From positions 1,100,866-1,164,865 of the forward strand of contig OY969767.1 of the NCBI GenBank assembly GCA_963702895.1: 64,000 nucleotides of DNA, read 5' to 3'. Position 1 is the first letter of the stretch. Every line of letters begins with the position of its first letter. This DNA is from an uncultured Elusimicrobia bacterium (lineage in GTDB: Bacteria; Elusimicrobiota; Elusimicrobia; 2-01-FULL-59-12). The notes under the pieces are model-generated. The model did not search any database and was not told where the DNA came from. It saw nothing but the letters and a program-made list of their open reading frames with translations. Positions 1 through 62,344 of this stretch are shown in pieces. A program made the translations under genes and the position numbers.

Positions 1-3000
1 GACACTCGCAAAGCGTTTACGGACTTGGTCGCTAAGCGTTTGAAACGTTCACTCACCGTGGAGACACTGGACTTGGCTCGCGAAATCGATTTTGGCCGGT
101 GGGACGGCCTCAGCGAAGAGGAAATTCTCAAGAAGTGGGGCCTGGACGAATTGGAGCGTGCGAAACGCTATCGTTACGAGGTTGACCCGACGGTTGTCTC
201 GGAGGGTGGAACGTCTTACCTGGATTTCTTGACCCACCAGGCAAGCGATCTGTTGACGTACATTAACGAGAAACACGCGGGCAAAACGGTGCTCCTCTTC
301 GCCCATGGAACATTGGGAAGCGCTCTGAGCGTATTGCTGTCATACCCCGAAGTGGTCACAAAAGAAGGTCACATTGACTGGCGGGCAATGAATATTCCAA
401 ACGCCGTGCCCTTTCAATTGCAGCGCTATTCGCGACCCGCCGCGGATTCGGCTACGCCCACCGCGGGCCAGCCCGCTAGCCCTGAGCGGTTCGGCAGGCT
501 CACCGCAAGCGAGCTCGCCCTGAGCGAAGTCGAAGGGAGTCGAAGGGCCGCCGCGCCGGATACGGCGGACACGGAGACAACAGAAACACCGACACGGGGA
601 CGCGGAGAAACACCCATTGAAGTTTCCCCGCGTCACCCCGTCGCCGCGTCTGCGCGTCCGACGTCCGATCCCGCCGCCGCGTCAACGGATCCTGACAGTA
701 TCGGATCCACAGACGCCAATAAGGATCATCGACATCACCCACCCATCGGCAATAACCCGCACGATGTCCCCGCCGCACAGTTCCCTGTTCGACCCGCTTG
801 GGTCTATGAGCCTTCGGTTCCACAGGAAATGAGGTCTGAATTGGAGGATATGCTCCTAAAAGGACCTCATCTGCGATCGGTTCTGGAACGCGCTGCAGAT
901 AAGACGCGGCACCCGGTCACAATTGCATTTCAAGCCTATATGAACATTGCGGCCAGAATGGGATATACCCCCGAAATGGGATATTCCATTATGTTTTCTC
1001 AGGAATGGTTGGACGATAATGAACCAAACGCATTGGGCGCTCTTGAACATGAAGTAGCACACATCGGGGTCTATGTCGACGGCATCGCTAACCTGGAGGA
1101 TGACCGAACTTTTCAGACGAGTATGAGAACCCGTCCTCGCAATGATTTCTCCCATTCCGTATTGCAAGCGCTCTCCGATTTTATTGCAGTTTGCTATCAG
1201 CTCGAGCTAAATTGGGTATCGGCCGCCAGTTATATCCTGGACGTGGTCGTCGCGCTGAATCAAAAGAGTCATGCTCGGTGGGTCAACATGGCGCCCGGGG
1301 AACAGACGCGACAGGCTGCTTTCCAATATGCACTGCACTATCTACGGAGTTTTATGGCTTTTGATCATGAGAACAGGGGCGTTGATCCTGCGACTCGCGA
1401 AACCTTTACATTGGCCTTCAAAGACATTTTAACAACCGAGGAAATGACAGTAATCCGTGAAGCGCTCAACGAATCACTGAGGGGCATTCCCCTCACCCAT
1501 TTGACTCATGCAGACTTTTTTGATGCGTTATGCAATAAACTCTACACGCTCGTAGGCTCACTTGCTAAACATTCTCGCGCTGCCGCGCCGGGCACAGCCG
1601 ACACGGAGACACGGGGACCCCCCGCCACTGAGGCATTGGCGGGTCCGCCAAGAAGTAGTGGCGGAGGAGACACGGGGAATCAAGGAGCAAGCGATGGCCC
1701 CTCCGCTTTTGACGTTTCCCCGCGTCCCCCCCTCCCCGCGTCCCCGCGTCCGACGCCCAAACCCGCCGCCGCGCCGCCGACAGTCGAACCGGCGAATGGG
1801 CGAGCCGGCGATCTGGCGAAAGACCCGCCAAATGGTTCGCCGACACACCCCGTCGCCAAGTCGCTGACTCGACCGTCCGATCCCGCGTCGGGTTCGACTT
1901 CGCTCACCACAGGCCCTGAGCGAGCGGGAGCGAGTCGAAGGGCTCCCGCGCTGGAAAGTGCTGATGTGAGAAATGGTTCAGAAGAATTGGACATTCTAAG
2001 CCCAACAATCGACGCTTTGGTCAATCAATTGTGGAAAAGCATTTCACTCAATGACGCTGTGGGAAGATCACAAGCGCGGCGAGAATTGGAAGCCCTTGGG
2101 TTTAGTGTTCAAATTGGATTTTCACGTGAAATGCATCCATATTCTGATCCACAACATATTGAAGCGCTTACGATTTATCAGACGTTAACGAAAATGGCGA
2201 CTCCTGAGCAGCTCCGCTCCATCCGAGACGTTCTTTCGCATGGGATGCAAAATATCGCCAAATGGGGAGGTGGCAGAGGATTTTTATTAATGCGGCTGAA
2301 TACCGAAGCAAGGGCCTTTCAAATTGTGATGGGAGATTCTGGATTGGGAATCACATATGGCGAGGGGCCTCTGAAAGGCAGCCACGCACCGATTCATGAG
2401 GCGGTAAAACTCGGACAATCGTTCGCTGCTGGAAGCGATGGGGGAAAAGGGCTGGCTTATATGGTGATCGATCTCGACGACGTCTCTGTCACTAGCATCA
2501 CCCCTGAAGACGGAGTTGCCCGCGGCCATTGGTGGAGAAAAGGATGGCAACGAGAACGCAGATTGAAGAGTAATCAAAACTTACCCTCACAGGGATTAAA
2601 GATTGTTGGCCAAAAACTTCTTGGCCCCGCCGCCGCGCCCGCCACTACACCGTTGGCGGGCAAGCCGGGCGCAGCCGACACGGGGATCGATTCACCGCGT
2701 CCCCGCGTCCCCCCTACTCCGCGTCATGATCTCTCCGCGTCACCGCGTCACCACGTCGCCGCGTCTGACTCTGTCACGGAGCCCGCCGCCGCGCCGGAAC
2801 GCTTGCCCTCCCAGTTGAAAGGGAAATGGGCGTGGTTGTCGAATGCCTGGGGGGAAGCGTTCCATTGGCTCCTGGCTCCGGCGTTTGGGTTTCAAGACGC
2901 CCGGATGGTCTGGCAGAAGGACCAGGCTCCTTACGTGCATGTCCCCGGCTTGCCGGCCCGCGGCGTCCGGGCGTTTCTAATGGCGGCCGTGCATCCGCTG

Positions 3001-7749: not shown

Positions 7750-7834
7750 TCAAGCAAATCCAGGTTCCAAACACGCTTCATCGCAAAGGATGTGGAAGGC
7801 GAGCGCAGGGTTCTGTTATACAATCATCGTCAAG

Positions 7835-8482: not shown

Positions 8483-8636
8483 ACAGGCGTATTTTCTGCT
8501 TTAAGGTGCGGAGCGCCGTGGCAAAAGAACCCGTTTCGACGGCGGTAGAAGAGGCGACGTTCAGCGTGAGCGCCTTTTCGTATTTGCGCCGGTCTCGAAG
8601 GTAGGGGCTCGTCGCCAGCAGTGATTTCTTTTTCAT
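8466..8636 (-). CDS. Small ORF (56 aa), candidate VbhA-like Fic antitoxin, convergent with and overlapping the fic 3' end by 17 nt
   Basis: My own translation is MKKKSLLATSPYLRDRRKYEKALTLNVASSTAVETGSFATALRTLKQKIRLFKKAA. STAVET resembles the alpha-inh motif [S/T]xxxE[G/N], with T instead of G/N. It falls below the 60-aa cutoff of the ORF track. Confidence 0.4.
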   Translation of the reverse strand: MKKKSLLATSPYLRDRRKYEKALTLNVASSTAVETGSFATALRTLKQKIRLFKKAA

Positions 8637-8702
8637 GAAACAAGTCTACCATGATGGCCGCACCAATTCCAGACTTCCCAGCCGTTGCAGAAAGGACCTC
8701 CT

Positions 8703-9449
8703 ATGAAATTCGAGCTTTCTGACGAACAACTGAAAAATCTGCTGGTTCTGGCGTATCTGGGCGAATGGATGGCTAATGCGACCAGGGAAGAGCCGATCAA
8801 AGACTATGAGCAAGCCGCTTCCAGGATTTACGCCCTGGCCCAAGGAACCGCGCTGGAGCGCTACGTGGACTACGATGATCAGTCGCGGCGGTGGTGGCCC
8901 AGCAAGGAGCTGGACGAAGCAGCGGAACCGTTGCGCAGCGATTATGACGATGAGACGTTCTGGGACGAACTGCTGGACCGCCTGATCGACCGGGACCTTG
9001 CCGCAACATACGGGGTTGGGATTTTGGGTTCGAAGGACCGTGATAAATATTGCGCCCTGCGAGAGCCGATCGAGTCACGCTACGGGACGGAGTTTGAACG
9101 CTTTGGGATTGATCGCCTCAAGCTGCCCGAGGGTCTTCCTGAAGAAGACGCTTACTCCCCCTCGCCGGCCCAGGCGACAGCGATGGGCTTGGCGTGGTAC
9201 CGGTCCGATCAATGGGAACAGCTTCGGTCCATCTCCGCGGACCGCGATGAGCTCGAAGAAAGATACGTGGAATGGTTAAAGACCGCTTCTAACCTCTTTT
9301 CCCAGCTCACGCTGCGGGGTCAAGAGATCAAAAAGGTATTAGTGGACGTCAATGATCTCGCCAAATGGTGTAAAGCCAAGGGCCTTCTTGTCGATTCCCA
9401 TTCCCGATCTGCTTTCGTCGCGGACCAGCTCCGAACGACGAAGTCCTGA
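8703..9449 (+). CDS. Acidic hypothetical protein (248 aa), cargo of the Fic cassette
   Basis: Long non-repetitive ORF with ATG at 8703. No motif recognised. Confidence 0.6.
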   Translation: MKFELSDEQLKNLLVLAYLGEWMANATREEPIKDYEQAASRIYALAQGTALERYVDYDDQSRRWWPSKELDEAAEPLRSDYDDETFWDELLDRLIDRDLAATYGVGILGSKDRDKYCALREPIESRYGTEFERFGIDRLKLPEGLPEEDAYSPSPAQATAMGLAWYRSDQWEQLRSISADRDELEERYVEWLKTASNLFSQLTLRGQEIKKVLVDVNDLAKWCKAKGLLVDSHSRSAFVADQLRTTKS

Positions 9450-9526: not shown

Positions 9527-9695
9527 AATAGATTAACCGGGTTCCTCGAAGATCGGGCCGGTTCCCCGAAAGATTAGGCAGGTTGGCCGAAAGATTAGGT
9601 AAGTTCCTCGAAGATTAGGTAAGTTCCCTGCGGAAGATTAGGTAAGTTGGCCGAAAGATTAGGTAAGTTAACCGAAAGATTAGGCAGGCTTGTCC
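9527..9695. repeat. Array C: 8 contiguous ~20-nt direct repeats, same family and order as the right part of array B
   Basis: Units include aagattaggcaggttggccga, aagattaggtaagttcctcg, aagattaggtaagttccctgcgg. The last unit encodes KPA-stop of gene 9680..10423. Confidence 0.85.
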
Positions 9696-12241: not shown

Positions 12242-12490
12242 CGACGATGTTCTAGATTCCGGGTCTCCACTTTGACGCGGTGGGCCGTCCGCCACAAGAC
12301 GGGCGGAGAGCGCCTGGTGCGTGGCGCTCGGCCCCCGCCTAACTTCTGGCGAGGCCTCGCCAGCCGTGTGGCGGGCGCCGGGAGTGTGGAGGGCCGGCTT
12401 TCGCCGGAATGACAACCATAAGACCTTCGGAAGGGCTTGTCGACACCCTTTTGGAGATCTGGACCCCGGCTTTCGCCGGGGTGACGACAC
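12211..12490. repeat. Cluster of REP-like GC hairpins (ACCCCGGC-N4-GCCGGGGT family) plus an 18-nt perfect palindrome, between the two M16 genes
   Basis: Hairpins are accccggc ggaa gccggggt (12213-12232), ccggc tttc gccgg aatgac (12394-12413) and accccggc tttc gccggggt (12463-12482). The palindrome is ctggcgagg/cctcgccag (12344-12361). Confidence 0.8.
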
Positions 12491-12552
12491 GAGTGGCCTT
12501 GGGCCCCTGTTTCGCTCACTTTGGGACATTCGCATTCCTGGCACATCGATCC

Positions 12553-17356: not shown

Positions 17357-17377
17357 CCGGAAATGTTCAGTTATGCC

Positions 17378-17459
17378 GTCACCCCGGCGGTCGTCAGCCG
17401 GGGTCTATCATCGACGTAAAAGACATGATGGATCCCGGCTAACAACACGCCGGGATGAC
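17378..17459. repeat. Two REP-like hairpins of the GTCAYCCCGGC family in opposite orientation
   Basis: gtc accccggc ggtcgtca gccggggt, and atcccggc taacaacac gccgggat gac. Confidence 0.75.
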
Positions 17460-17550
17460 GGCACAAAAAAGTCCCGACGTCTCACTCTGCAAATCACATG
17501 CAACAGAACTTTTCCGGCTAGCCCAAAATCTTAAGTTGCCCATCATCTCC

Positions 17551-24507: not shown

Positions 24508-24530
24508 AAACAAACGGCGTACGGCGAAAA

Positions 24531-24566
24531 TAGAGAATAGACAATAGCTCTATTCTCTATTGTCTA
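24531..24566. other. AT-rich imperfect palindrome just downstream of the NlpC/P60 stop
   Basis: tagagaatagacaatag / ctattctctattgtcta, 15/17 complementary by eye. No T-tract follows. Confidence 0.35.
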
Positions 24567-24596
24567 CGTTAGCCCTAAATCTTTGGTTCGGCGTAA

Positions 24597-25842
<1,246 letters not shown>

Positions 25843-29326: not shown

Positions 29327-32300
29327 TTATTTCCGGAGGTAGATCAGCTTAAAAATGGCTTTTTCGCCCAGCGCGCGCGAAATGGCTTCCGTGTAAGCTT
29401 GAGCCTGCAGAGCGTAGGGGTCGGATTCGACGGCCGAACGACCGACGTTTTGGGTCGTTTTGTAGTCCCCCACCACGAGCTGCCCGGATGGGAGGCGGTA
29501 GAGGATATCGAGGGTGCCCCGCATCAGCTGACGTATCGGCGTATCGGCGTGCCGGCGTACCGGAGTAACGTCGTTACCCCGATACTCCGATACCCCGATA
29601 CTCCGATCCTGTTCACTATCATAGAAGAACGGCACCTCCCTCCCTAAAATCTCCGATCCTTTGATCTCCTCGTAGTCCTTCGATCGCATAAAGTCGGCCA
29701 AGAGGCGCTGGGCCTCCTCCACGACGGCGATGATTTCGGGAGGGTTGCTGGTTTTCCGGCCCAGCTTCAGCTCAGGAAAAGGTTCCAACAGGAGGCCTTC
29801 TTGAGCGAAAGAGGTGTTCGCGACTCGGCGTAAGGCCGTTGGCATCGTCTCTTTTTCAGCTTGAAAGTCCCAGGTTTCGAGGAATTGATGGACGAGCGTG
29901 CCCAGCCGTGCGGGATCGATACGGCGAAGCGGAGAATCGGCGAAGCGGCGAGTGGACCACTTCTCTGGCTCGCCGGCTCGCCGGCTCGCCGGCTCAGTCC
30001 ATTGTGTGGGGCTCATCACCCGTAACGTCTTCATCGCTTGTTCATAAGTTTCGGACTGCTCCTGCCACCGCGCGGCGAGTTCGACTGGCTTAATCGCGGC
30101 CAGCCAGGCTGGCTTCGTTGAGTCGGGCGCAGGCAAGGGCGCCTCCTTCGAAGTGATCGTGTGGGCCGTGAGGGTGCTTTCGCCCATACGGATGAGGCCA
30201 TCCCCCAGTTCATCCAGATTGAGTTTCCAGGCACTCGCAAGCTGGTTGAGGAAACTGTCTTTCGCAGGTCGCTTCAAGTGGATGCCTCCGGACAAAATGA
30301 GCCGCTCTTTGGCGCGGGTCATGGCCACATAGAGGATGCGCAAGTCTTCGGCCGCCTCCCGGACCTTGGCGTCTTCCTCCAGCGCCGCGCAGTCGAGGCT
30401 TTCCACATCCTTGTCCAGCGCGATGCCGAGGCGTCCCGTCGCCCAATCGTAATGCACGCGGAGATTATCCTTCCGCCTGTTTCCGCCCTTGCCTCGGTGC
30501 AGACCGGGGAGCCAGACCACAGGAAACTCCAATCCTTTTGCTTTATGCACGGTCAGGAGCCGCACGGCATCATAGGTTTCGTCTGCAAGAGGATACTCCC
30601 CTTCCAACCGGTCGTTTTCCATAAAGCGGTCGATCTTTCCTAACAGACCGCCCAACGTGGTTTCACCTTCCTCCGCAAAGGATTCCATCAGGCGCTTGAG
30701 CTTGAGCAGGTTCGCCATTGTCTGGTCTTGGTGATAGGAACGGGCCGCGAGTTCCATGAGATAGGTGTCTTCATAGACATGGTTCAAAATGGATTTCAGG
30801 GGCTCACGCTGGGCCCTTCTCTGCAAGTTGTTGATCAACTGGAACGTTTTTGCGGCGTGCTGGTCCTCCGGGGGCGCTCTCCATCCGGCCTCTTTGATCG
30901 CTGTGAGCTCAGGGTCTGTAAAGCCCCCCAGCGGCGATCGCAAGAATCCCGCTAAGGCCAGGTGATGGGAAGGGTCCTCGGTCACACGGAGGAGGTTGAG
31001 AACATCGGTCACCTCGGGTGTGCGATAGAAGTAGCGTTCGGCCTCGACCACAAAGGGAATATGGCGCCGGCGAAGCTCCTCGATAAAAGGCAGCATCGCG
31101 GTGGTGGCGCGGAAGATGAGCGCGATGTCCTTAAACCGAAGGCCGTCCGACGTGCGACGTCCGAGGTCCATATCACTTAGGTTTGTACGTGCCTCTTTGA
31201 CGTCGGACGTAGGACGTCGGACGCGGGAATCGATCCACGCCGCGGCGTCCGCCGCTTCTTGTTCGAGAGCTTCCTCGGAGGTTTGTGGTTCGCCGGAAAC
31301 GGCCAGTCGTAATTCCACATCCTGGTGCTCGCTCTCTTTGGCCCGCCGGGGGACGAGGGCTTGATAGGCGGGTGAGATCGGATGCTGTTCCTTCATGAGC
31401 GACGAGAACGTGGTGTTGATCGTGTGGATGATCTGGTCGTGGGAGCGATAACTGTCTTCAAGACTGAGGCGCTGGCCGCCTTGCGCGAGCACCATCTCCG
31501 TGATGCGCTGGTAGGCCGCAATGTCAGCGCCGCGAAAACGGTAGATCGATTGCTTCGGATCACCCACAAGGAAGAGTTTCCCGGGTTCGAGCTTCACTTG
31601 GTCCCAGCGTTTGGCCTGGGTGCCGAGCTGCTCCGAGAGAAAGACCAGGAGCTCGCCCTGAAGCGGGTCGGTGTCCTGGAATTCGTCGACGAAAATCTGC
31701 CGGATCTTGTTCTTTAAAGTCTCCCTGACATGCGCCTCACGCGCCACCAGCTCACGGGCAAGCACGAGGAGCGCGTCATTCGAAAGATGTCCCTCTGCCA
31801 AAATCTTGGCGCGGAAACGCGCGACAAATGGCTTAAGCAATTGGGTCAGGTCGCGAAGCTTGACGTTTTCTTCTGCGCCCTGAAGCGGCAGGCGATCCAA
31901 GGGCACATCAAATTCACACAGGCGCCGCGCGAGTTCTCTGATTTTCCCAAGGGAAACCGTCTGCAAGACGTTGAGCCAATCACTTGCTCGAGGCTCGAGG
32001 CGATGGGCTCCTGACGAATGTGGGGTGTGCTGGCCTGGGGCATGGAGCCTGGAGCTGTCTCGGATTCTGGGGCCTGTGCCCTGGAGTTCGTGCCTCAACC
32101 AGGCAGGCCATTCTTTTTCAAAGAGATCATCGGCCCGTACGCCCTTGTCATCGACTTCCGCGGCGGGACTGATGCCTGCGGCGATGGGAAAACGTTTCAA
32201 CAGGCTGAAGGCGTAAGAATGGATCGTTCCAATCGCGGCGCGGTCGATGGCCTCCAGCGCCTCGCGCGCGCGGGATTTCCGATCGTCCGAGGCATCGCGC

Positions 32301-32494
32301 TCCAGGGTGTTGTGAAGTTCCGCCGCGATGCGCTCTTTCATCTCGCCCGCCGCTTTCTTCGTGAAGGTCAGCGCGACCAGCGTCTCCATCGGCAGGTTTT
32401 TCTGGAACAGAGCCTCTAAAATAGCCTGGACGAGCGTGTGGGTCTTCCCTGTGCCAGCGCTGGCTTCGATGACGATGTTACGGGAGAGATTCAT
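29327..32494 (-). CDS. addA: UvrD-family helicase with a C-terminal PD-(D/E)XK nuclease (AddA-type)
   Basis: Walker A IEASAGTGKTHTL, helicase motifs (FVDEFQDTD, LVGDPKQSIYRFRGA, TVHKAKGLEF) and nuclease RGTLDILY...VVGDYKT. ATG at 32494; the 116-codon extension was rejected. Confidence 0.85.
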   Translation of the reverse strand: MNLSRNIVIEASAGTGKTHTLVQAILEALFQKNLPMETLVALTFTKKAAGEMKERIAAELHNTLERDASDDRKSRAREALEAIDRAAIGTIHSYAFSLLKRFPIAAGISPAAEVDDKGVRADDLFEKEWPAWLRHELQGTGPRIRDSSRLHAPGQHTPHSSGAHRLEPRASDWLNVLQTVSLGKIRELARRLCEFDVPLDRLPLQGAEENVKLRDLTQLLKPFVARFRAKILAEGHLSNDALLVLARELVAREAHVRETLKNKIRQIFVDEFQDTDPLQGELLVFLSEQLGTQAKRWDQVKLEPGKLFLVGDPKQSIYRFRGADIAAYQRITEMVLAQGGQRLSLEDSYRSHDQIIHTINTTFSSLMKEQHPISPAYQALVPRRAKESEHQDVELRLAVSGEPQTSEEALEQEAADAAAWIDSRVRRPTSDVKEARTNLSDMDLGRRTSDGLRFKDIALIFRATTAMLPFIEELRRRHIPFVVEAERYFYRTPEVTDVLNLLRVTEDPSHHLALAGFLRSPLGGFTDPELTAIKEAGWRAPPEDQHAAKTFQLINNLQRRAQREPLKSILNHVYEDTYLMELAARSYHQDQTMANLLKLKRLMESFAEEGETTLGGLLGKIDRFMENDRLEGEYPLADETYDAVRLLTVHKAKGLEFPVVWLPGLHRGKGGNRRKDNLRVHYDWATGRLGIALDKDVESLDCAALEEDAKVREAAEDLRILYVAMTRAKERLILSGGIHLKRPAKDSFLNQLASAWKLNLDELGDGLIRMGESTLTAHTITSKEAPLPAPDSTKPAWLAAIKPVELAARWQEQSETYEQAMKTLRVMSPTQWTEPASRRAGEPEKWSTRRFADSPLRRIDPARLGTLVHQFLETWDFQAEKETMPTALRRVANTSFAQEGLLLEPFPELKLGRKTSNPPEIIAVVEEAQRLLADFMRSKDYEEIKGSEILGREVPFFYDSEQDRSIGVSEYRGNDVTPVRRHADTPIRQLMRGTLDILYRLPSGQLVVGDYKTTQNVGRSAVESDPYALQAQAYTEAISRALGEKAIFKLIYLRK
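29532..29609. repeat. 8-nt-period hairpin element (CGTATCGG / CCGATACN class), in frame in addA (78 nt, 26 codons)
   Basis: cgtatcgg cgtatcgg cgtgccgg cgtaccgg agtaacg | tcgttac cccgatac tccgatac cccgatac tccgatcc. About 7 of 8 positions per unit are complementary between arms. Peptide is GVSEYRGNDVTPVRRHADTPIRQ. Confidence 0.85.
29923..29998. repeat. 8-nt-period hairpin element (GGCGARNN / GGCTCGCC class), in frame in addA
   Basis: ggcgaagc ggagaatc ggcgaagc ggcgagtg, loop gaccacttctct, then ggctcgcc x3 and ggctcagt. Peptide is SRRAGEPEKWSTRRFADSPLRR. Confidence 0.85.
31143..31226. repeat. 8-nt-period hairpin element (GTCCGACG / CGTCGGAC class), in frame in addA (84 nt, 28 codons)
   Basis: ccgtccgacgtgcgacgtccgaggtcc, a 31-nt loop, then cgtcggacgtaggacgtcggacgcgg. 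Peptide is VRRPTSDVKEARTNLSDMDLGRRTSDG. Confidence 0.8.
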
Positions 32495-32922
32495 AGTGAG
32501 GCGGCGCGCGGTTGAAAGAGAAATAAAGCATAAGTCTTGAGTGAAAGCCAGCGAAATCTCGTCCGCCCTTCTGGCGTGAGCGCCCCCCACGAGCCGTGAG
32601 AAGCAGGAAATCTTTAGGGGTAGGTTGTCTCCTCTTTCCCTGGAGCAGGCGCCTGCTCGCTCCAGCGAAATTTCCCCCTCCATGGCCCCAGTCCTGCATG
32701 GCCACGGAGGGTCAGCGTTTTGGCTTCGGGCAGCCTGCGGAACTCCCCGCCAGACGTCTTGGCGGGTCAAACAGTCCTCCGCCACTGGGTCTCTGGCGGA
32801 CGCCAACGTCGTAGTGGCGTCGGCTTGACTCGCCCTCGCCAAAACGCTTGAAATTTCGAGTCGCTCGTCAGGCTCCTGCTCCAGGGAAAGAGGCGCAACT
32901 CCATCTTGATAGCATTAACATC

Positions 32923-33113
32923 TCTTGTCGTGGGGGAGGGAGGCAGCGAACGACTCGCGGACGGCGGCCGGGTGGTGAGCGCGTCCAGCCGAGGATGGTT
33001 GAGCCTCGACCTTTGATGTACAGGAAGGAGGCGAGTTCCGCAGGCTGCGCGAACCACCCAGCCGGGGTGTCCGGGAGCGCCGGAGTGAGTCGCCTCCCTC
33101 CCCCACGGCAAGG
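32923..33113. repeat. 191-bp element bounded by 22-bp terminal inverted repeats (20/22 match): MITE-like element or structured RNA
   Basis: tcttgtcgtgggggagggaggc (32923-32944) versus gcctccctcccccacggcaagg (33092-33113). The core 15 nt are perfect. Internal helices include gggtggt/accaccc, cgagg/cctcg and ggaa/uucc. Confidence 0.6.
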
Positions 33114-35277: not shown

Positions 35278-37289
35278 TGGCAAGACCCCTGCTTTTGATC
35301 TGTCGCCTGGCCTCTGCGCTGGGAATTCTTTCTCTCGTTTTAACGGCCGAGATCAGCCTGCCTTACGGATGGCTGAGCGGACTTGCCTGGGCCGCGGGTC
35401 TATTCCTTGATCGCCGACCTTCCTGGCAGGCGAGGTGGCAGGTGATGGAGACGCCGGCCGTGATCGCGATCATCATGGTCTTTCTGCTCGACTTCTTTCG
35501 GTTCGGCGCTTCGATCTTTGTGAGCCTCGCGCATTTTCTGATGCTGTTTCAGGCCATCAAGCTTCTGGGGAGGAAAGGGCGAAAGGACTGCGCGCAGATC
35601 CTCCTCGTCAGCTTTTTCCAGACCCTCTCGTCCTGCACGCTTTCGGTCGGGGCTTGGCAAGCGGGCGTGATGCTGGCGCTTGTTCCGATCGCGACCGCTG
35701 GGCTCTTTTGGCTTCAGGCCAGTCGTGAGGAAGCGCTCTATCCCGATTTCTTTGTGAAAGGTGCCGCGAAGTCGTTCCGCTGGGTCGTGCTGTTCATGAG
35801 TGCGGCCGCCATTCCCATCAATCTGGTCCTTGCAGCGGCTCTCTTTGTGGTTTTTCCCCGCTTAGGCTTTCGCACCTTCGTGGGTGTGGGGATGGGCAAG
35901 AGCGGCTATACCGAGCAGGTCAATCTGACCCTAGGCGGTCGCCTCCATGAGGACAACAGCACGGTGATGTGGTTGGAGATCCTTCCTCCGTCCGATCGCC
36001 CGCGCTGGGGTGGCTACCTCAGGGGCGGGGCGCTCGAGGCCTTTGATGGCAAAGTGTGGAGCCGAAGCGGTTCCTTATCGCAGAAGGCTTTGGTCGCAGG
36101 TTCCGGCGGCTTGATCCGCGCCCCAGGCTTCACGGGGGATGCCATCCACGGGGCCTTGCGCCAGCACGTCACCCTCATCAACACGGCAGGATCCATCCTC
36201 TTTGGCAGTCCCGCCATCATCGAAGTCTCTGCGCCCTTCACCACGCTTCAGTATTACGCCGATGGAAGTTTTCGCTGGACCACGGGCTGGCGAAAGCCAC
36301 TGGCCTACGATATCGTCTCGCAGGAGGCCTCGCGTTCTTCGTCTGTCAGGCAACCCCTGGGCCCCAAAGACCTGCAAGCCAATCTGGATCTGCCCGGTCT
36401 TTCATTTGATAAAACGAAAATCCTCACACGATCAATGGGGGGCACGGGGCCGGCCCGGCTTCGTGCGCAGAGAATCGAGTCTTTTCTGCGGGACAACTTC
36501 ACTTACGCCAAGGACCTGGGTTCATCGACAAGCGCCAATCCCATCGAGGAGTTCCTCTTTGTCACGAAGCGCGGGCCCTGCGGTCATTTCTCCTCAGCCA
36601 TGGCCGTGATGCTGCGCCTGAGCGGCATTCCCGCGCGTGTGGTCTCGGGCTACTACAAAGGATCATGGAACAGCCGGGTCGGGCAGTATGTGATACGGGA
36701 AAAAGACGCCCATGCCTGGGTCGAAGCGTATCTGCCGGGTCAAGGCTGGACGGCGTTTGATCCGACGCCGCGTGTGGAAGGGCCGGTCTCTGCGCAACCC
36801 TGGCTCGTCAGACTTCAGGAGAATTGGGACTACGTCAATTACACGTGGGATAAGCTCGTCATTCAGTACGACCTCTATTCACAGGTGAGGGTGCTGGAGG
36901 ATCTTCAGCGCGGGTCGAACAGGATGAATGAAAAAGCGACCGCCTGGATCAATCAACTCCAGTCCTTGTTCCGGCTCTCTCATCCGCTGGAGAGCGGATT
37001 GCGCGCGAAGAAGCGCTTGCGGTTCTTTCCCCTTCTGGCACTTCTATCGATCGTGGGCCTTCTCACCGCGATCGCTCTCCATTTCTGGAGACGAAGAAAG
37101 GCGATCGATCCTTCGATCGCGTTTTACGTCCAATTTCTTTCGCGCATGGCCCAAAAAGGCTATCCCAAGGCCCCCTACGAGACAGGTCTCGAATACGCGG
37201 CCCGCCTGCCGGATGAGGCTGGCGGTGCCCAAGCCAGGCAACTGACCGATCGTTACTACAAGGCGCGCTATCGCTCCATCCGCGCTTAA
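35259..37289 (+). CDS. Transglutaminase-like protein with a polytopic N-terminal (DUF3488-like) domain
   Basis: GPCGHFSSAMAVMLRLSGIPARVVSGY, DAHAWVEAY and GWTAFDPT (Cys-His-Asp core). Start is 35259 or 35277 (TGATG coupling). Confidence 0.85.
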   Translation: MEASAVMARPLLLICRLASALGILSLVLTAEISLPYGWLSGLAWAAGLFLDRRPSWQARWQVMETPAVIAIIMVFLLDFFRFGASIFVSLAHFLMLFQAIKLLGRKGRKDCAQILLVSFFQTLSSCTLSVGAWQAGVMLALVPIATAGLFWLQASREEALYPDFFVKGAAKSFRWVVLFMSAAAIPINLVLAAALFVVFPRLGFRTFVGVGMGKSGYTEQVNLTLGGRLHEDNSTVMWLEILPPSDRPRWGGYLRGGALEAFDGKVWSRSGSLSQKALVAGSGGLIRAPGFTGDAIHGALRQHVTLINTAGSILFGSPAIIEVSAPFTTLQYYADGSFRWTTGWRKPLAYDIVSQEASRSSSVRQPLGPKDLQANLDLPGLSFDKTKILTRSMGGTGPARLRAQRIESFLRDNFTYAKDLGSSTSANPIEEFLFVTKRGPCGHFSSAMAVMLRLSGIPARVVSGYYKGSWNSRVGQYVIREKDAHAWVEAYLPGQGWTAFDPTPRVEGPVSAQPWLVRLQENWDYVNYTWDKLVIQYDLYSQVRVLEDLQRGSNRMNEKATAWINQLQSLFRLSHPLESGLRAKKRLRFFPLLALLSIVGLLTAIALHFWRRRKAIDPSIAFYVQFLSRMAQKGYPKAPYETGLEYAARLPDEAGGAQARQLTDRYYKARYRSIRA

Positions 37290-40192
37290 GAGCGGGTGTG
37301 GTTCATCTCGAGAGAGAAGGCATCCTCATGCCTCTTCCGGAGGGGGCTCTTTCCATGGCGGATCTGGGTCGGTTTGTGCTCTTTGCGGCAGACATGGGCG
37401 AGCGTGCACCACGAGCAGTAGCCATACCCGTCGCTCGGACGGATGAAAAAGGAGCCTGACTCGATCTCTTGGACCAAAAAGCCTAATCTCTTGCGGAAGG
37501 GCTCGCCGTAGTCCTTCCAGAATTCCGGGCCAATCTCCAGCGGCATTTCGCTTTCTCCTAAACGATAGAACCGTGCTGAGCCGTTGCGAAAGGCCTTGTT
37601 CCCTTGTTTCTTCAACCATGCTTGGGCCAGGAGCACATAGAGAGGCAGTTGGAAGCTTTTGCCCTTCAAGATGGCTGTTTCGACCTTCACGTTTTTCCCA
37701 ATCCCGCCAGAGCCAGTTTTATAGTCTACAACCCGGAAAGCGTTCTCTTTCAGGTCTAAGCGATCAATCCGACCCTGGAGAAACAGCCCATCCACGACTT
37801 CAGCGAGGTTCAGCTCGAAATGGGTCGGCCGAAAGCCGCTTTCTTTCAGCTCGGCCCTATCTTGAGGTATAAAGCTGTGAAGTGTGCTTAGGATGGAGTT
37901 TTGCTCCGCCTGCCAAGCCAGAGGATAGAGCTCGGGATGCTCTTTGGCAAAGAGCTCCAACTCCTTTTCGGCCAATTGATCCATATTGACTTCGTCTGAT
38001 TTCGAATAGCTTTGATAGATAAGCTCAAGTAACTTATGAATGAGTTTTCCACGTCCTGCGAGGCTGAGCACTCCGTCTTCCACATCCCTTTGTTCGGTTT
38101 CGAGCCCCAGAACCTTCCGGCCATAGACCTTGAAGGGACACTCCGCCAAATCCTTTAAGGTGGCGGGGGATAAGCCCTTCGCCAGGAGCTTCCGGGAGAG
38201 CGGGTGGTCTTTCCCGATGAGCCCGTCATAGGCCCCCAGTGCCTTGAAGGATTCCATCTCGCGCTGCGACTGGAGGAGATGGTTCATCATGTCTCGGTCC
38301 CATCCTAAAGCCTCATAGAGGGTGTCGGTTTCACAGTCGTGCCTGTGGAAGGCGAGAGAAACCTCTTTCGGACGAAGCGTCCGGGCCGGGACCTGATGAA
38401 TCTTTTCCAGCCATGTCCGGCGCAAGGATTGGAGCGCCACTTGGTTCTGGCGCAGATAGTCATGGAGGTAAAGCGATAGGACCAGCGCCTTGCCTTCTTC
38501 GTCGGAACGCTGGCAGGAGAGGTGCAAATGGCTCCTGGCCGATTGGATGGCGAGCTCAAAGAGCAATTTTTCTTCCTGGTAGCCGTCCATCTTGCGGCCC
38601 AGCCGGCAGCCGAGCGCTTGTGCGAGGGTCGACCGGGCCGCGTCGGAGAGGAACGGATCTTCACGAATCAGACGCGGGAAGAGTTTCTCATTCAAGCCCA
38701 CAAGGAACACGGCTTCAAAGGAAAGCCCGCGCGCGCTCATGATGTCCATCACTTGAACGCCTGCGACATGGTCGGGGACAAGCGCCAGACGCAAGCCTTC
38801 GAGTTTTTCTTCCAGCACTTCGAGGAAGCGCGCGTAGGGCACTGGCTTCCCCAGCGCGTCGAGCTCGCTCAGGGATTCGACGGCCTCCAAGAGCCCTTCC
38901 CAAAGGCGGATTTCGACGTCCGTGGCGTCTTCTGGGAAATGAATCTTTGAGGAGAGAAGTTCCTTCGCCCGGCGGGTGTGCTCTGACCAGCTCGAAAGGA
39001 TTTCCCCCTCCCTTGTCTCAGCCAAAAGGACCTCCCTTGCCCGCTTGACGAGCGGCCAAGCTCCGACGGGTTCCTCTGCATGGAGGGCATAGGGAATTCG
39101 GTGGTTTTCGAGGATTTCACGCAGGGTGCTCAGGTAAGGGTCTAAAGAGCGGGCGATCACTGCCATGTCGTCATACGGAACCCCCTGCTGGGCGAGTTCA
39201 AGGATCTTTTTTGCGGTGAGCCAGATTTCATCGTGGGTCCCGGAGCAGCTCCAGGCTTCTGTGGTTCGACCCGGCGAACCGGCCCCATCCACCTGTGGAG
39301 TGCTCGATGGTTGGGGCCGTCCCGACGAAATAGATTCATAGGAGGACGGGACGGCGAGTGGGCGAACCGGCGCGGGAATCGATGGGTTGTTTCGCCGGCT
39401 CGCCGGGTCGCCGGCTCGCCGGCTCTGACTTTGAAAGGCTGGATCTTTCAGCAACAGCTCCGCATACCCGTAAGCGGGATGGCCTTCTTCGTAAGGAAAG
39501 TAGATCCTGGCATGGGGATGAGTCGAAAGCGCTCTGACCAGGTCGAGCTGCACGCCGGTGAGATCGTAGAAGCCATAGAGGTAAATCGCCTTCAGTTCTT
39601 GGATCCAGGGGGTCTCGGGGATGGCCGCGGCCGCTCGTCGGATCAAGTCCGCACTCGTTTGCAGGCGGTGGTCGTGGAGGACTTTATAGGTCAGGACATT
39701 GAGTTCCAAAATCGGCACCGCCCCTCCTGCTCCTTCACCGAGGTGACCTTCTCGGGCGACGTTGGCGCAATCGACGACGCGCGCGCCGGAATCCTGAAGG
39801 TCTTTGAGCGTTGCCGCAAGGGCCCCCGCCAGCCCTTTGGGAATCGGTGAGCCCGGATGCACCAGGGCGTCTTTGGAAAGGAAGGGCATCTGTGCCTCGC
39901 CCGAAAGGAAGTCATGCACGATTTCCCGGTAGAGCGTGGGCTCGGTGATCCTGTGCGTGTCCAAGGTGGACTCACTCACCCAAGCACGTTCCGCCAGCGC
40001 AAAAAAGGTCAGGAAATGGATGTTGAGGTACGCATGGCTTTGGGCGAGTCGTCGTTGTAAGCGGTTCAAGATCTGGCCCGAGGGCGATAGAACCAGGACC
40101 CCGCCCAAGGGGTCGGACTTCTTCTGAGCTGCCACATCGCTAAGAAAAGCGTTTTCGAGAGAGGAATAGGTGCCGGTCGTGAGGTGGAACAT
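37286..40192 (-). CDS. addB: AddB-type helicase-nuclease subunit (PD-(D/E)XK nuclease with an Fe-S Cys cluster)
   Basis: C-terminal GRIDRLD...VVDYKTGSG and CSWCTLAHVC. ATG at 40192, 11 nt after the upstream stop; the 140-codon extension overlapping the transporter gene was rejected. Confidence 0.75.
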   Translation of the reverse strand: MFHLTTGTYSSLENAFLSDVAAQKKSDPLGGVLVLSPSGQILNRLQRRLAQSHAYLNIHFLTFFALAERAWVSESTLDTHRITEPTLYREIVHDFLSGEAQMPFLSKDALVHPGSPIPKGLAGALAATLKDLQDSGARVVDCANVAREGHLGEGAGGAVPILELNVLTYKVLHDHRLQTSADLIRRAAAAIPETPWIQELKAIYLYGFYDLTGVQLDLVRALSTHPHARIYFPYEEGHPAYGYAELLLKDPAFQSQSRRAGDPASRRNNPSIPAPVRPLAVPSSYESISSGRPQPSSTPQVDGAGSPGRTTEAWSCSGTHDEIWLTAKKILELAQQGVPYDDMAVIARSLDPYLSTLREILENHRIPYALHAEEPVGAWPLVKRAREVLLAETREGEILSSWSEHTRRAKELLSSKIHFPEDATDVEIRLWEGLLEAVESLSELDALGKPVPYARFLEVLEEKLEGLRLALVPDHVAGVQVMDIMSARGLSFEAVFLVGLNEKLFPRLIREDPFLSDAARSTLAQALGCRLGRKMDGYQEEKLLFELAIQSARSHLHLSCQRSDEEGKALVLSLYLHDYLRQNQVALQSLRRTWLEKIHQVPARTLRPKEVSLAFHRHDCETDTLYEALGWDRDMMNHLLQSQREMESFKALGAYDGLIGKDHPLSRKLLAKGLSPATLKDLAECPFKVYGRKVLGLETEQRDVEDGVLSLAGRGKLIHKLLELIYQSYSKSDEVNMDQLAEKELELFAKEHPELYPLAWQAEQNSILSTLHSFIPQDRAELKESGFRPTHFELNLAEVVDGLFLQGRIDRLDLKENAFRVVDYKTGSGGIGKNVKVETAILKGKSFQLPLYVLLAQAWLKKQGNKAFRNGSARFYRLGESEMPLEIGPEFWKDYGEPFRKRLGFLVQEIESGSFFIRPSDGYGYCSWCTLAHVCRKEHKPTQIRHGKSPLRKRHEDAFSLEMNHTRS
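39353..39428. repeat. 8-nt-period hairpin element (GGCGARNN / GGCTCGCC class), in frame in addB
   Basis: ggcgagtg ggcgaacc ggcgcggg, loop aatcgatgggttgt, then ttcgcc ggctcgcc gggtcgcc ggctcgcc ggctctga. Peptide is SRRAGDPASRRNNPSIPAPVRPLA. Confidence 0.85.
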
Positions 40193-40203
40193 CCCCTGCC
40201 ATT

Positions 40204-41457
40204 CTACATCAAGGCGGTGCCGACCATGAGAAGCGTCAGCACGATCATGACCCCACAGGTGGTGACGGCAATGATGTTGTAGAAGCGGGAATTCACATAG
40301 GCCCCCATGATCTGCTTTTTGTTGATCAAGCGGAGCATGTAGATGAGAATGAAGGGTAGAAGAACGCCTTGGATGACCTGAGACAGCAGCATGATGCGCC
40401 AGAGCGGTATCCGGGGCAAGAGAACGAAGCCGGAGCCTATGACAATCATGGCCCCGAAGAGCGTATAGAATTGAGGGGCTTCTTCGAACGAACGGTCCAC
40501 GCCGGCTTCCCAACCCAAACCTTCGGAGACGTAGAAGGCGGTTGAAAGCGGTAGGACCGCCGCGGCGGCCAGAGAGGCCACCAAGAGGCCGATCCCAAAG
40601 AGGGCAAAACAATATTGTCCCGCGATGGGCTTGAGCGCCATGGCCGCAGACTGGGCATCGTCAATGCGGATGCCGTTTGTGAAGAGCGTCGCCGCGCAAG
40701 TGACCATGATGGAGAACGTGATAATGTTCGTCATGCCGCAGCCCGAGATGACGTCGAGCCGGCACATGGGATACTCCTCTTTGCGGATTCCTTTTTCGAC
40801 CACCGAGCTTTGGAGATAGAACTGCATCCATGGGGTGATGGTCGTTCCCACCAGCCCGATGAGCACGACCACATAATGTTGGTTCCAGGTGATTCCGGAA
40901 GGCAACACCAGCTGCGTCAAGACTTCTTTCCATGGGGGGTGGACCATCCAAGCGGAGATCACATAACTCCCAAAGAAAACAATGGAGACAAGAAAAATCT
41001 TCTCAACATTCCGGTAGCTCCCTTTCGTGACGGTCCACCAGACAAACAGGGCCGCCAGCGGAACGGATACGTAGCGGGAGATATGGAACATCTCAAGACT
41101 GGCTGCGATCCCGGCGAATTCTGAGATGGTGGTCCCGATGTTTCCAATCAGGAGCCCGATCATCACGTAGAAGGTGGCTTTCACGCCGTAGTTTTCGCGG
41201 ATGAGGTCCGCTAATCCCTTGCCTGTGACAGCCCCCATGCGCGCCGCCATTTCTTGGATGACGATGAGGGAGACCGTTAAGGGGAAGATCGTCCACAGCA
41301 TGGTGTAGCCAAAATGCGAGCCCACGACGGAGCACGTCGCAATCCCCCCCGCATCGTTGTCGATAAAGGCCGTGATCAGGCCAGGCCCCATGATCGCTAA
41401 AAAAAGGGCCATGCGCCGGAAGAAAGCGGAGAGTTTGTTGGGTCGCAGGTCGTACAT
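40204..41457 (-). CDS. NRAMP/SLC11-family transporter with a non-canonical metal site (DAGG and TPW), NRMT-like
   Basis: GPGLITAFIDNDAGGIATCS aligns to ..DPGN.. (41344-41355 encodes DAGG). GTTITPWMQFYLQSS aligns to ..MPHNLYLHS.. (40828-40836 encodes TPW). Confidence 0.8.
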   Translation of the reverse strand: MYDLRPNKLSAFFRRMALFLAIMGPGLITAFIDNDAGGIATCSVVGSHFGYTMLWTIFPLTVSLIVIQEMAARMGAVTGKGLADLIRENYGVKATFYVMIGLLIGNIGTTISEFAGIAASLEMFHISRYVSVPLAALFVWWTVTKGSYRNVEKIFLVSIVFFGSYVISAWMVHPPWKEVLTQLVLPSGITWNQHYVVVLIGLVGTTITPWMQFYLQSSVVEKGIRKEEYPMCRLDVISGCGMTNIITFSIMVTCAATLFTNGIRIDDAQSAAMALKPIAGQYCFALFGIGLLVASLAAAAVLPLSTAFYVSEGLGWEAGVDRSFEEAPQFYTLFGAMIVIGSGFVLLPRIPLWRIMLLSQVIQGVLLPFILIYMLRLINKKQIMGAYVNSRFYNIIAVTTCGVMIVLTLLMVGTALM

Positions 41458-59442: not shown

Positions 59443-60522
59443 TTAACGGGTCGACCGGTTCCAGAGACGTTCGAACTCCCGTTTGAAGCGAGGCGCCTGG
59501 TCATCGAGTACCACGAAGTTCTCATCGTTTCTTTGGGTCGCATTAGACGTCCAGTTAAAGCTCCCCGTGAGGACGTATCGGTCATCAAGAATAAGGAATT
59601 TGTGGTGCAGGATGCCTCCTTTGCTGCCCCGCTGGATGCGTATGGGAATGCCGGCACTGCGCAAAAGATCGCTGACATCACGCTTTCCTGCGGCTTGCGT
59701 TTTGTCGTGGACGACGCGCACCTTCACGCCGCGGAGTTTCGCCTGGACCAGAGCCCTGGCGATCTTTTCATCGGTGAGGCCATAGATGGCGCCGTCAAGC
59801 GACTTTTCGGCTGAGGCAATCCAGGACGTCATGACTTGGTCGCAGTGCCCGAGCGGACTAAAACACGTGTCAAGGGTCCTGGCTGCCAGCGGCAGAGCCA
59901 CCAGGGTCAGCCCCGTGGCGAGAACCAGGCATGCGGCTCTCCTGGCTGTCCGCTTTTTCAACATCCAGAGGGCCAGGACGAGGTAAACCGCGGCCAGCGC
60001 TGCGTAGTTGGAGAGCATGAAGGTTTTGTTACCCCAGGAGGTGCCTTCATAAAACGGTGTCGGGAACGGCCAGAGGTAAGGCGTTGCAAAAAAACGGCTG
60101 GAGTGGGTCGGTATATCGCCCAGGATATGGAGGGCCCAGGCACCCAGCGGCATCAGTGACCGTAACGGAGTAACGGGGTAACGGGGTAACGGAGTCACGT
60201 CATTTTGTAATTGCTCTGACCCCGATACTCCGGTACTCCGATACTCCGATACGGCCCAAAGTACTGCAAAGACGGCGGCCCACACCACCAAGCTGTGCGT
60301 GACATCGTAGGCATGATACACGTACGCGGGGATCGTGCTGGGGTCCGGCGGGCCGTGGCGGCCCTTCGCCCAGCGCTCACCGATATCACCCAAATGGGTC
60401 AGAAAGAAGGGGCCGAAAGATAAGAGGTCCGGTGCCACACCTGCGAGGAACGCCTGCTTCCAGCGCTTCTGGCAGAGTCCGAAGGCGGCCCCACCCCACA
60501 GTCCATGAGCTAGCGTGTCCAT
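59443..60522 (-). CDS. Fusion of a YdjM/DUF457-like membrane hydrolase domain with a PLD-family (Nuc-like, HKD) domain
   Basis: N-terminus MDTLAHGLWGGAAFG plus multiple TM segments. C-terminus GGILHHKFLILDDRYVLTGSFNWTSNATQRNDEN (HxKx4D...N). Confidence 0.75.
   Translation of the reverse strand: MDTLAHGLWGGAAFGLCQKRWKQAFLAGVAPDLLSFGPFFLTHLGDIGERWAKGRHGPPDPSTIPAYVYHAYDVTHSLVVWAAVFAVLWAVSEYRSTGVSGSEQLQNDVTPLPRYPVTPLRSLMPLGAWALHILGDIPTHSSRFFATPYLWPFPTPFYEGTSWGNKTFMLSNYAALAAVYLVLALWMLKKRTARRAACLVLATGLTLVALPLAARTLDTCFSPLGHCDQVMTSWIASAEKSLDGAIYGLTDEKIARALVQAKLRGVKVRVVHDKTQAAGKRDVSDLLRSAGIPIRIQRGSKGGILHHKFLILDDRYVLTGSFNWTSNATQRNDENFVVLDDQAPRFKREFERLWNRSTR
60161..60252. repeat. 8-nt-period hairpin element (GTAACGG / CCGATAC class), in frame in the YdjM-PLD gene
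   Basis: cgtaacgg agtaacgg ggtaacgg ggtaacgg agtcacg, a 20-nt loop, then ccccgatac tccggtac tccgatac tccgatac. Peptide is SEYRSTGVSGSEQLQNDVTPLPRYPVTPLRS. Confidence 0.85.
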
Positions 60523-60528
60523 AGTGCC

Positions 60529-60612
60529 AGTATCGGAGTAACGGGGTATCGGGGTATCGGCGTAACAGCAGGTTGTGTGTAATAGAGCAACAGCGTAACA
60601 GCTGTATCGGAG
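60529..60612. repeat. Intergenic 8-nt tandem units (GTATCGG/GTAACGG/GTAACAG), same orientation
   Basis: gtatcgg agtaacgg ggtatcgg ggtatcgg cgtaacag ... cgtaacag ctgtatcgg. Begins 7 nt upstream of the YdjM-PLD start codon. Confidence 0.8.
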
Positions 60613-60723
60613 TCCTGGGGTGTCCGGGCATTGTAGTGATGGGGAAACGGTGTAACGATATTGGGCAAGGGCTCAGTCCGAAGAAAAATCTGGTTTCCAG
60701 AATTTATCTGGTTGTTGGTGTGA

Positions 60724-60756
60724 CCCCGGTACTCCGCTACTCCCATACACCGATAC
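60724..60756. repeat. Complementary 8-nt units (CCGNTAC), partner arm of 60529-60612 across a ~110-nt spacer
   Basis: ccccggtac tccgctac tcccatac accgatac. Ends 5 nt before the SEC-C gene stop. Confidence 0.7.
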
Positions 60757-60761
60757 TAGCT

Positions 60762-62223: not shown

Positions 62224-62233
62224 ATGAGGTTGA

Positions 62234-62323
62234 GCCGGCGAGTCGGCGAGTCGGCGAGTCGGCGCAAGAACGATCCAAGCGGTCTCCCACATTCCGCCGG
62301 TTCGCCGGTTCGCCAGTTCACCG
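62234..62323. repeat. 8-nt-period hairpin element (GTCGGCGA / TCGCCGGT class) in the leader between pheT and the kinase-deaminase gene
   Basis: gccggcga gtcggcga gtcggcga gtcggcg, a 29-nt loop, then ccgccggt tcgccggt tcgccagt tcaccg. Confidence 0.85.
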
Positions 62324-62344
62324 TTTCCCTTTGTCTTCGGAACG

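Follow-up and report, generated by a model that had tools for sequence, protein, structure and literature searches.

The addA gene on a 64,000-nucleotide (nt) stretch of contig OY969767.1 (the whole stretch is called the window here), from an uncultured Elusimicrobiota-like lineage whose nearest named relatives are Elusimicrobiota metagenome-assembled genomes (MAGs), carries three segments, E1, E2 and E3. In each, a tandem array of 7- or 8-nt units is followed by an array of more or less complementary units. We lean towards regarding these segments as dispersed, slippage-prone palindromic DNA repeats that are passively translated where protein linkers tolerate them. At least eight further tandem-unit hairpin elements lie within the 64-kb window. 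Some of them are inside addB or a ydjM-like gene and others are intergenic; at three of these sites relatives have no element. The observations support a class of tandem-unit hairpins that is genome-wide and non-random. An earlier note on this DNA had taken the addA segments for nucleic-acid repeats tolerated in protein loops, and in this it was right.

Tandem-unit segments in the linkers of AddA

The product of addA has UvrD-helicase, UvrD_C and PDDEXK_1 (PD-(D/E)XK) domains by Pfam, and the solved structure that it matches best is that of B. subtilis AddA (PDB 3U44_A, 2e-50). The closest of its 7954 homologues are 62-67% identical. All three segments were found where the earlier note placed them, in a continuous minus-strand open reading frame (ORF), and all are in frame, as any surviving insertion must be. 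When linker lengths were compared in an alignment of 18 AddA proteins, E1, E2 and E3 all fell in length-variable linkers, at which distant orthologues and B. subtilis AddA have short and unrelated sequence; the segments are not ancestral protein. The lineage-specific loop insertions that had been predicted are seen for E3 and E1, which add about 26 and 12 amino acids (aa) relative to orthologues; E2 brings no net insertion.

E1 encodes RRPTSDVKEARTNLSDMDLGRRTSDG (AddA residues 424-451), E2 encodes part of ASRRAGEPEKWSTRRFADSPLRR (residues 834-858) and E3 encodes DRSIGVSEYRGNDVTPVRRHADTPIRQ (residues 962-988). An AlphaFold model of AddA with a mean predicted local distance difference test score (pLDDT) of 78 has pLDDT below 50 and no secondary structure at residues 430-450, 835-858 and 964-986, which correspond to E1, E2 and E3. 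Each of these stretches is flanked by confidently predicted helices or strands, and E3 sits between two beta strands.

The three segments differ in anatomy (Table 1). The units had been described as 8 nt long throughout, which holds for E2 and E3; the unit of E1 is 7 nt (CGTCCGA / GACGTCG), and its two arms of 25 nt each are 88% complementary. In E2, where the arms are about 14 nt apart, the complement of GGCGAAGC is GCTTCGCC and not GGCTCGCC, leaving the arms mismatched at 2 of 8 positions and about 75% complementary. We scored hairpin stability as the fold of single-stranded DNA against 200 shuffles. Hairpin folding of the complementary arms is borne out for E1 (z -3.8; 0/200 shuffles as stable), intermediate for E3 (z -2.3; 6/200) and weak for E2 (z -1.8; 8/200), so that among the addA elements only E1 clearly out-folds its shuffles.

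The units named in the earlier note are indeed free of stop codons. This is not special, since 57% of random 8-mers with the same base composition have no stop on either strand. Of the units collected, 88 of 181 octamers and 30 of 63 heptamers have none on either strand, and some sister units in the window carry stops, TAA in GTAACGGR and TGA in the reverse complement of CCGCGTCA, which lie on the unread strand. We rejected a stop-free design because the collected units are no more stop-free than random 8-mers and the sister units violate it; the units are not designed for coding compatibility.

Other repeats occur at or near addA. A fourth window-specific AddA segment (31986-32055, residues ~142-167) also has pLDDT below 50 and lies over weak 7-mer arrays of GCTCGAG and GCCTGGA. 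It was rejected as a fourth insertion, its fold being no better than that of shuffles (z -0.15), and may be what is left of an element. Nested inverted repeats (32631-33112) lie in the divergent intergenic region between addA and moxR, with 25-nt arms that are 96% and 21-nt arms that are 95% complementary.

Sister elements and sites empty in relatives

The arrays far exceed chance. The window has 10 strong period-8 arrays, compared with 0-1 for each of periods 5-7 and 9-12, and 10-20 Markov shuffles gave none. Degenerate three-unit patterns behave in the same way: CCGNTACNCCGNTACNCCGNTAC, with up to 2 mismatches, has 16 matches in the window against 0.01 expected, and CGCCGNNNCGCCGNNNCGCCG has 14 against 0.06. 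Eight pairs of arrays are convergent and complementary, with gaps of 4-145 nt and a partner arm that departs by 1-7 mismatches per 21-24 nt from the reverse-complement consensus. Period 7 is found in E1 and the 24516-24574 hairpin, and period 8 in E2, E3, the addB and ydjM elements and both intergenic elements.

At least five unit families are present within the 64 kb, and several recur at separate loci: GTAWCGGN at three, GGCGANNC at four and CCGCGTCN at four. E2 and the addB and post-pheT elements belong to one unit family; E2 shares its right end with the addB element, and the coding strand reads from both the addB and the post-pheT element into CCTCNTATGA. E3 aligns end to end with the ydjM element, including the flank GCATCAG-TGAC. 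On the coding strand, the three GTAWCGGN-family elements all finish with a hexamer of similar sequence (GGCACT, GTCACT or TCAGCT) and then (G)ATG. The window has four copies of the motif GGG(A)ATCGAT (2683, 29912, 31225 and 39374), always on the plus strand and always within or adjoining elements, which are of different unit families; 936 kb of other loci hold 14 occurrences (~1 per 64 kb), never beside an array. Within arms the units are more homogeneous than the two arms are complementary, which is a signature of slippage. In the ydjM element all left units read GTAACGG and all right units CCGATAC, leaving 7-bp helices with a periodic A.A mismatch between them, and E3 shows in its right arm a 16-nt super-period without mismatch (100% identity).

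A short non-repeat hexamer followed by (G)ATG(A) on the coding strand was seen at five of the seven elements checked (read on the minus strand, 62220-62227, 60517-60528, 60150-60161, 29520-29531 and 39335-39346). The (G)ATG(A) could be a target preference, or a start codon that the element supplies. Within GGG(A)ATCGAT the heptamer GGGAATC of Xanthomonas can be read, followed by the start of its inverse; a link to that unit was dropped, as GGGAATC is not enriched in the window (11 occurrences versus 16 expected).

At three sites, relatives show the state without the element. The nearest relatives of the host share 62-77% protein identity, and their PheT proteins are 67-77% identical. In three of their loci (L121, L122 and L123) and in one contig from JGI, the pheT stop overlaps the next start (ATGA). 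The window carries 121 extra nt at this point, between the stop of pheT at 62345-62347 and the deaminase gene, which starts at 62223; the protein on the deaminase side is 85% identical from its first Met onward. The SEC-C gene (60762-61133) and ydjM are separated by about 1 nt in L122 and by 239 nt in the window, all of it hairpin, with the hairpin at 60526-60760 occupying the entire gap. Within ydjM, the element is a 29-aa in-frame insert, SEYRSTGVSGSEQLQNDVTPLPRYPVTPL (87 nt), which is absent from the L122 orthologue. The empty sites of relatives at these three elements indicate derived insertions, and because sites without spare sequence cannot drift into repeats, sequence must have been added. 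ATGA is directly duplicated on the two sides of the post-pheT insertion; the ydjM and SEC-C junctions show no evident duplication. The addB element lengthens its linker by about 30 aa relative to the AddB proteins of L119 and L120. In contingency-locus (phase-variation) SSRs, changes in unit number between cells or strains switch the frame of a surface or virulence gene; the host genes of the elements here are housekeeping genes.

Table 1. Positions in the window of addA, addB and the tandem-unit elements and motifs
Feature	Position	Strand	Description
addA	29327..32494	-	RecB-like helicase-nuclease subunit A; 1056 aa, begins MNLSRN; unbroken ORF
E1, heptamer hairpin	31144..31223		arms 31144-31168 (CGTCCGA x3.7) and 31199-31223 (GACGTCG x3.6); 30-nt loop
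GGGAATCGAT motif	31225..31234	+	adjoins right arm of E1
E2, octamer element, weak hairpin	29922..29995		left arm CGGCGAAG x3.8 (29922-29951); right arm GGCTCGCC x3.6 (29967-29995)
GGGATCGAT motif	29912..29920	+	just 5' of E2 left arm, in loop of small stem GCCGT..ACGGC
E3, octamer hairpin	29532..29609		CGTATCGG x4.5 (29532-29567); CCGATACY x4.1 (29575-29607); gap given as 4 nt
addB	37286..40192	-	PD-(D/E)XK nuclease subunit B (Pfam); true start Met141 of ORF 37286-40612, from alignment with L002, L119 and L120 orthologues
Octamer hairpin in addB	39347..39425		GGCGANNC arm, loop with GGGAATCGAT, then TCGCCGGC x4.2; fold z -4.4
Octamer hairpin in ydjM-like/PLD ORF (59443-60522, -)	60162..60252		GTAACGGR x4.8, 22-nt loop, CCGATACT x4; fold z -5.3
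Intergenic hairpin, same unit family as ydjM element	60526..60760		arms 45 nt, loop 145 nt
Post-pheT insertion, 121 nt	62224..62344		hairpin GAGTCGGC x4 / CGCCGGTT x3 at 62232-62319
Intergenic heptamer hairpin after NlpC/P60 gene	24516..24574		AATAGAG / CTCTATT on GGCGTA..TACG base
GACACGGR arrays and CCGCGTCN x4.4 arrays	1597..1751		~96 nt apart, inside ORF 25-6306
Further CCGCGTCN arrays	628-658, 2692-2765, 3375-3415		

Orthologous loci, other phyla and the origin of the elements

Comparable elements occupy the same places in related genomes. The AddA protein of locus L001 (61% identical) has heptamer hairpins in the same three linkers, with GTGGTAA/TTACCAC units in two of them and CGTCCRA at site 1, the site of E1. 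The linker that carries the window addB element is occupied in AddB of L002 by another octamer hairpin (GACACGGG / CGTCTCCG). Four orthologous loci picked without regard to repeats contain 13 arrays, 8 of them within addA or addB, and these two genes account for 27% of the DNA (P = 0.01). The convergent NlpC/DUF6941 spacer contains a hairpin with a common GGCGTA/AATAG core in both the window and L002 (18790-18870), and in L120 (18370-18932) inverted heptamer arrays in this spacer enclose a 23S_rRNA_IVP (PF05635) gene. At AddA site 1, the AddB linker and the NlpC/DUF6941 spacer, then, place is kept between relatives while length and sequence vary. An attempt to establish the orthology of E1 between the window and L001 by a shared variant was dropped, as the common 15-mer lies in opposite arms, and a strain-level metagenome comparison with an E1-specific 21-mer matched only two unrelated coding sequences, as expected by chance; no close strain turned up in the collections searched.

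Beside the window hairpin at 24516-24574 are a gene for an IS110-family transposase (24795-25817) and another inverted repeat (24623-24682); such neighbours, with the PF05635 gene of L120, suggest that the hairpins attract other mobile genes. The AddA and AddB linkers also receive a palindromic insert of another type, found in L002 addB (6387-9395) and at site 1 of the AddA proteins P0006 and P0002, which encodes SPSPLMGEG(G/M)DGG or PHPNPLPQGERG. These linkers are thus hot spots for more than one class of repeat.

A scan of species-representative genomes matched at least 116 DNA stretches. Among the matches listed, MAGs from many phyla contribute about 20 hairpins of the form (GTRTCGGN)n-loop-(CCGATACN)n, some of them right after tRNA genes. 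The architecture recurs in independent assemblies (Logan, ENA, NCBI and JGI) from many phyla, including MAG contigs of 0.1 to 2.7 Mb. Viral carriage was considered and dropped, as only 2 or 3 of the 46 viral contigs with the octamer pattern had hairpin pairs. Octamer hairpins of the form (GTGTCGGN)n-loop-(CCGATACN)n stand directly 3' of tRNAs in L008 (1150-1230), L017 (6986-7084; the groundwater MAG JACQOF01), L013, L018 and L065, with systematic G.T wobble on the tRNA strand; this pattern in the sequence hints at an RNA-level role in those genomes.

New copies arise as insertions at sites like the three described above, even where stop and start codons overlap. If the elements are dispersed repeats, the inserted sequence would be copied from existing elements of the same unit family. 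Going by the anatomy of the arms, replication slippage would then add, remove and homogenise units, and point mutation would drive the arms apart. Copies in genes would survive only in length-tolerant linkers, with the frame kept and no stop in the frame that is read, as the structure model supports, and these survivors would be passively translated as disordered loop peptides. addA and addB would collect elements because they have several length-tolerant linkers.

A number of findings weigh against dispersal. The E2 linker is 31 aa long compared with 26-30 aa in relatives, and the site-1 and site-2 elements of L001 lie in linkers of ancestral length; both cases look like conversion in place. 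Loops are unrelated between copies, which have only units and short termini in common, and unit diversity between genomes is high, with 50 distinct units among 63 heptamer arrays. The single possible target duplication is the 4 nt at pheT, equally explicable by selection for intact genes. [quoted passage not shown] No mobilising enzyme was identified: the only transposase among the window ORFs is of the IS110 family, with no Y1 transposase or REP-associated tyrosine transposase (RAYT) among them. Lastly, deeply diverged genomes have some positions in common, namely AddA site 1 (window and L001) and that of the NlpC/DUF6941 hairpin (three genomes), which could be a sign of selection for function. 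Because some copies keep linker length, some positions are old and no mobiliser was found, both an origin in place and a cis-acting function retain some probability.

An origin in place without mobility is possible, though we rate it well below dispersal. It holds that unconstrained DNA, between genes or in protein linkers, drifts to tandem 7- or 8-mers and quasi-palindromes under a mutational bias typical of the lineage, by polymerase slippage in units of about 7 nt and by intrastrand template switching in which one arm is copied onto the other. Such drift would account for the copies at E2 and at L001 sites 1 and 2 that retain the ancestral linker length, for the internal homogeneity of each arm and for the high diversity of units between genomes. 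It also fits the predominance of periods 7 and 8, which lie far above 6, 9 and 12 in the scanned loci, with a period-8 count inflated by the search pattern, and a proposal relayed for heptamer repeats, that their excess reflects polymerase slippage or the footprint of the polymerase active site (PMC4692102). It does not predict recurring unit families, shared flanks or the GGG(A)ATCGAT core at separate loci, and is contradicted by the addition of 121, 239 and 87 nt at three sites where relatives have 0-4 nt to spare. Selected cis-acting hairpins of RNA or DNA (a terminator, an mRNA stabiliser or processing site, a protein-binding array or a recombination signal), with the addA and addB copies tuning nuclease expression, seem unlikely. 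Position is kept across genomes of 60-67% identity at AddA site 1, the AddB site and the NlpC/DUF6941 spacer, the enrichment of arrays in addA and addB points the same way, and so do the wobble on the transcribed strand of the post-tRNA hairpins in other phyla, the concentration of repetitive extragenic palindromes (REPs) in repair genes of other bacteria and the effect of Nostoc heptamer repeats on recF and recO expression. Yet units and loops differ at the shared sites, and close relatives function without the elements. A strand-specific RNA function was rejected, as the folding energies of the two strands of window elements have no consistent bias relative to transcription, and intrinsic terminators were rejected as no T-run follows the intergenic hairpins. 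A search for known RNA families and tRNAs found none, including no Rfam match.

It is very unlikely that the insertions are adaptive at the protein level, giving AddA a new interaction surface or mode of regulation through peptides such as RRPTSDV... and RSIGVSEYRG.... A TSDV...RTSDGL sequence at site 1 is common to AddA protein P0008 and the window, and Di Nocera et al. suggest, as a speculation, that repair proteins might be modified by inserted REPs (PMC3733652). The peptides are, however, a mechanical three-phase reading of a nucleotide repeat, disordered in the model; the same linkers of relatives hold different units and hence different peptides, and the same units are found between genes. 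An assembly or sequencing artefact is hardly credible. Assemblers can be confused by short tandem and inverted repeats, but every element leaves its ORF intact, and the same architecture appears in independent assemblies from several pipelines, including contigs of up to 2.7 Mb.

A bolder reading, which we regard as doubtful, would make the elements a widespread and unnamed self-propagating class of tandem 7/8-nt-unit palindromes. Such a class would have its own dissemination mechanism (possibly (G)ATG(A)-preferring), would settle preferentially in AddAB/RecBCD linkers and would offer other mobile genes (IS110, 23S-rRNA-IVS protein genes) a landing pad, with a range from Elusimicrobiota-like bacteria to Dehalococcoidia, Planctomycetota, Acidobacteriota, Bacteroidota and Thermoplasmatota. 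AddAB and RecBCD are double-strand-break helicase-nucleases that process broken hairpin DNA.

Known repeat systems, consequences and neighbouring repeats

A claim that the elements are a distinct and uncharacterised type goes too far, in view of published inverted tandem heptamer arrays, short tandemly repeated repetitive (STRR) hairpins and in-frame REPs. In Xanthomonas, GGGAATC heptamer arrays form convergent inverted pairs at 70-75 sites per genome, of which 7-11% are intragenic; 83% of the sites keep their position while varying in length, and the arrays have no link to insertion sequence (IS) elements (Rehm et al. 2015, PMC4692102). The corresponding Nostoc unit is GGGGA(T/C)T (PMC4692102), and cyanobacterial STRR heptamers form intergenic hairpins (PMC2670836). 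Cyanobacterial STRR sequences are reportedly also the subject of a 1997 paper by Vioque, which is cited in PMC2858038. The window elements resemble these heptamer simple sequence repeats (SSRs) and STRRs in being dispersed head-to-tail arrays of a short unit whose length is not a multiple of 3, some of them within ORFs. In both systems closely spaced arrays on opposite strands can form stem-loops, position is kept while length and sequence vary, and there is no link to IS elements. They differ in that units here are mostly of 8 nt, fall into several unrelated families and include no G-tract (quadruplex) units, in the large in-frame intragenic share and in the host, an uncultured lineage. An SSR or STRR system has one dominant unit in hundreds of copies per genome; the window instead has at least five families in 64 kb.

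In-frame REPs have been described from recBCD, uvrABCD and polA, and two species have different REPs at one and the same recB site (Di Nocera et al. 2013, PMC3733652). Like intragenic REPs and REP doublets forming hairpins (REPINs), the window elements are small palindromic repeats that occur both between genes and in frame, with inserts of 20-30 aa (PMC3733652; Bertels and Rainey 2011, PMC3116915), and like REPs they are frequent in recombination and repair genes. The inverted doublets also fold as one long hairpin, in both DNA and RNA folds, which is a trait of REPINs. A REP, however, is a single imperfect palindrome of 20-40 nt with a GTAG or CGTC head and a RAYT transposase, whereas the arms in the window are tandem arrays in a single orientation and are not palindromes themselves. 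Among window units only that of E1 starts with CGTC, and the window ORFs include no RAYT.

The comparison with Rickettsia palindromic elements (RPEs) made in the earlier note is apt for in-frame tolerance and fails for architecture. PMC3733652 portrays RPEs as palindromic selfish DNA tolerated in frame at permissive or surface positions of functional proteins, which is the likeness. Unlike RPEs, copies here have no whole-length consensus and unrelated loops, with only units and short termini in common. RPEs are reportedly families of 100-150 bp with a whole-length consensus, without tandem units and confined to Rickettsia, an account that goes back to Ogata and colleagues in 2000. Bacterial MITEs (Correia/NEMIS, RUP, Nezha) are, like the window elements, non-coding hairpin-forming inverted-repeat insertions of 70-300 bp that are sometimes intragenic. 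Copies of a MITE share internal sequence, and ends in common with a parent IS, and are flanked by target duplications of fixed length. In the window, by contrast, loops are unrelated and no parent IS is seen, the sole transposase being of the IS110 family. TAACTGA heptamer direct repeats in Beggiatoaceae, Cyanobacteria and Bacteroidetes (MacGregor 2015, PMC4679880) are likewise tandem 7-mers abundant in particular lineages and common to distant phyla; they differ in comprising 169 direct sets versus one inverted set, in lying just upstream of start codons and in having one unit sequence (PMC4679880).

The window elements fall outside the definitions of REPs and RPEs. They match the class of inverted tandem arrays apart from their 8-nt unit, their several families and their large proportion of intragenic copies. 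A full-text literature search found no paper describing octamer-unit hairpins in frame in addA or addB. What remains new here is the 8-nt unit, several unit families per genome, the repeated colonisation of AddA and AddB linkers in distant lineages and the spread across phyla.

Non-coding repeats here create protein segments, linker peptides of about 25-30 aa in AddA, AddB and a membrane protein, and this DNA evolves by nucleic-acid rules, having pushed apart two overlapping gene pairs in the window. A mechanism of dispersal, if identified, would explain both the excess of 7-nt (here 8-nt) tandem repeats in many bacteria and the recurrence of palindromic repeats in recombination and repair genes. 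In practice, the elements inflate ORFs, as in the 2093-aa stop-free frame below, and yield recurrent 'hypothetical' peptides in metagenomic protein catalogues; their fast-evolving sites could serve for strain typing.

That frame (ORF 25-6306, plus strand) has His_Phos_1, sigma-70 region 4 and aldo/keto-reductase domains, linked by four copies of a CCGCGTCN-rich repeat of about 60 nt that encodes linkers like SPR.P..AS.RPTSDPAAA. Its sigma-70 region 4 lies within a 207-nt tandem duplication (3477-3885). The ORF may encode one giant modular protein, or it may be a set of separate genes that stop-free repeats join only on paper. Further along the window are an ORF6N gene (6439-6996) and arrays of a 21-nt unit (AAGATTAGGTAAGTTCCCCGA, 64-nt super-period) at 7116-7409 and 9540-9688, which flank a Fic-domain gene (7703-8482) and a gene at 8685-9449. 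Between two M16 peptidase genes is a large inverted repeat (12181-12514), whose 59-nt arms are 80% complementary and stand 216 nt from each other; it includes GTCACCCCGGCGGAAGCCGGGGTCCAG, a palindrome that resembles a REP but is of another kind, and a related palindrome is found at 17371-17466.

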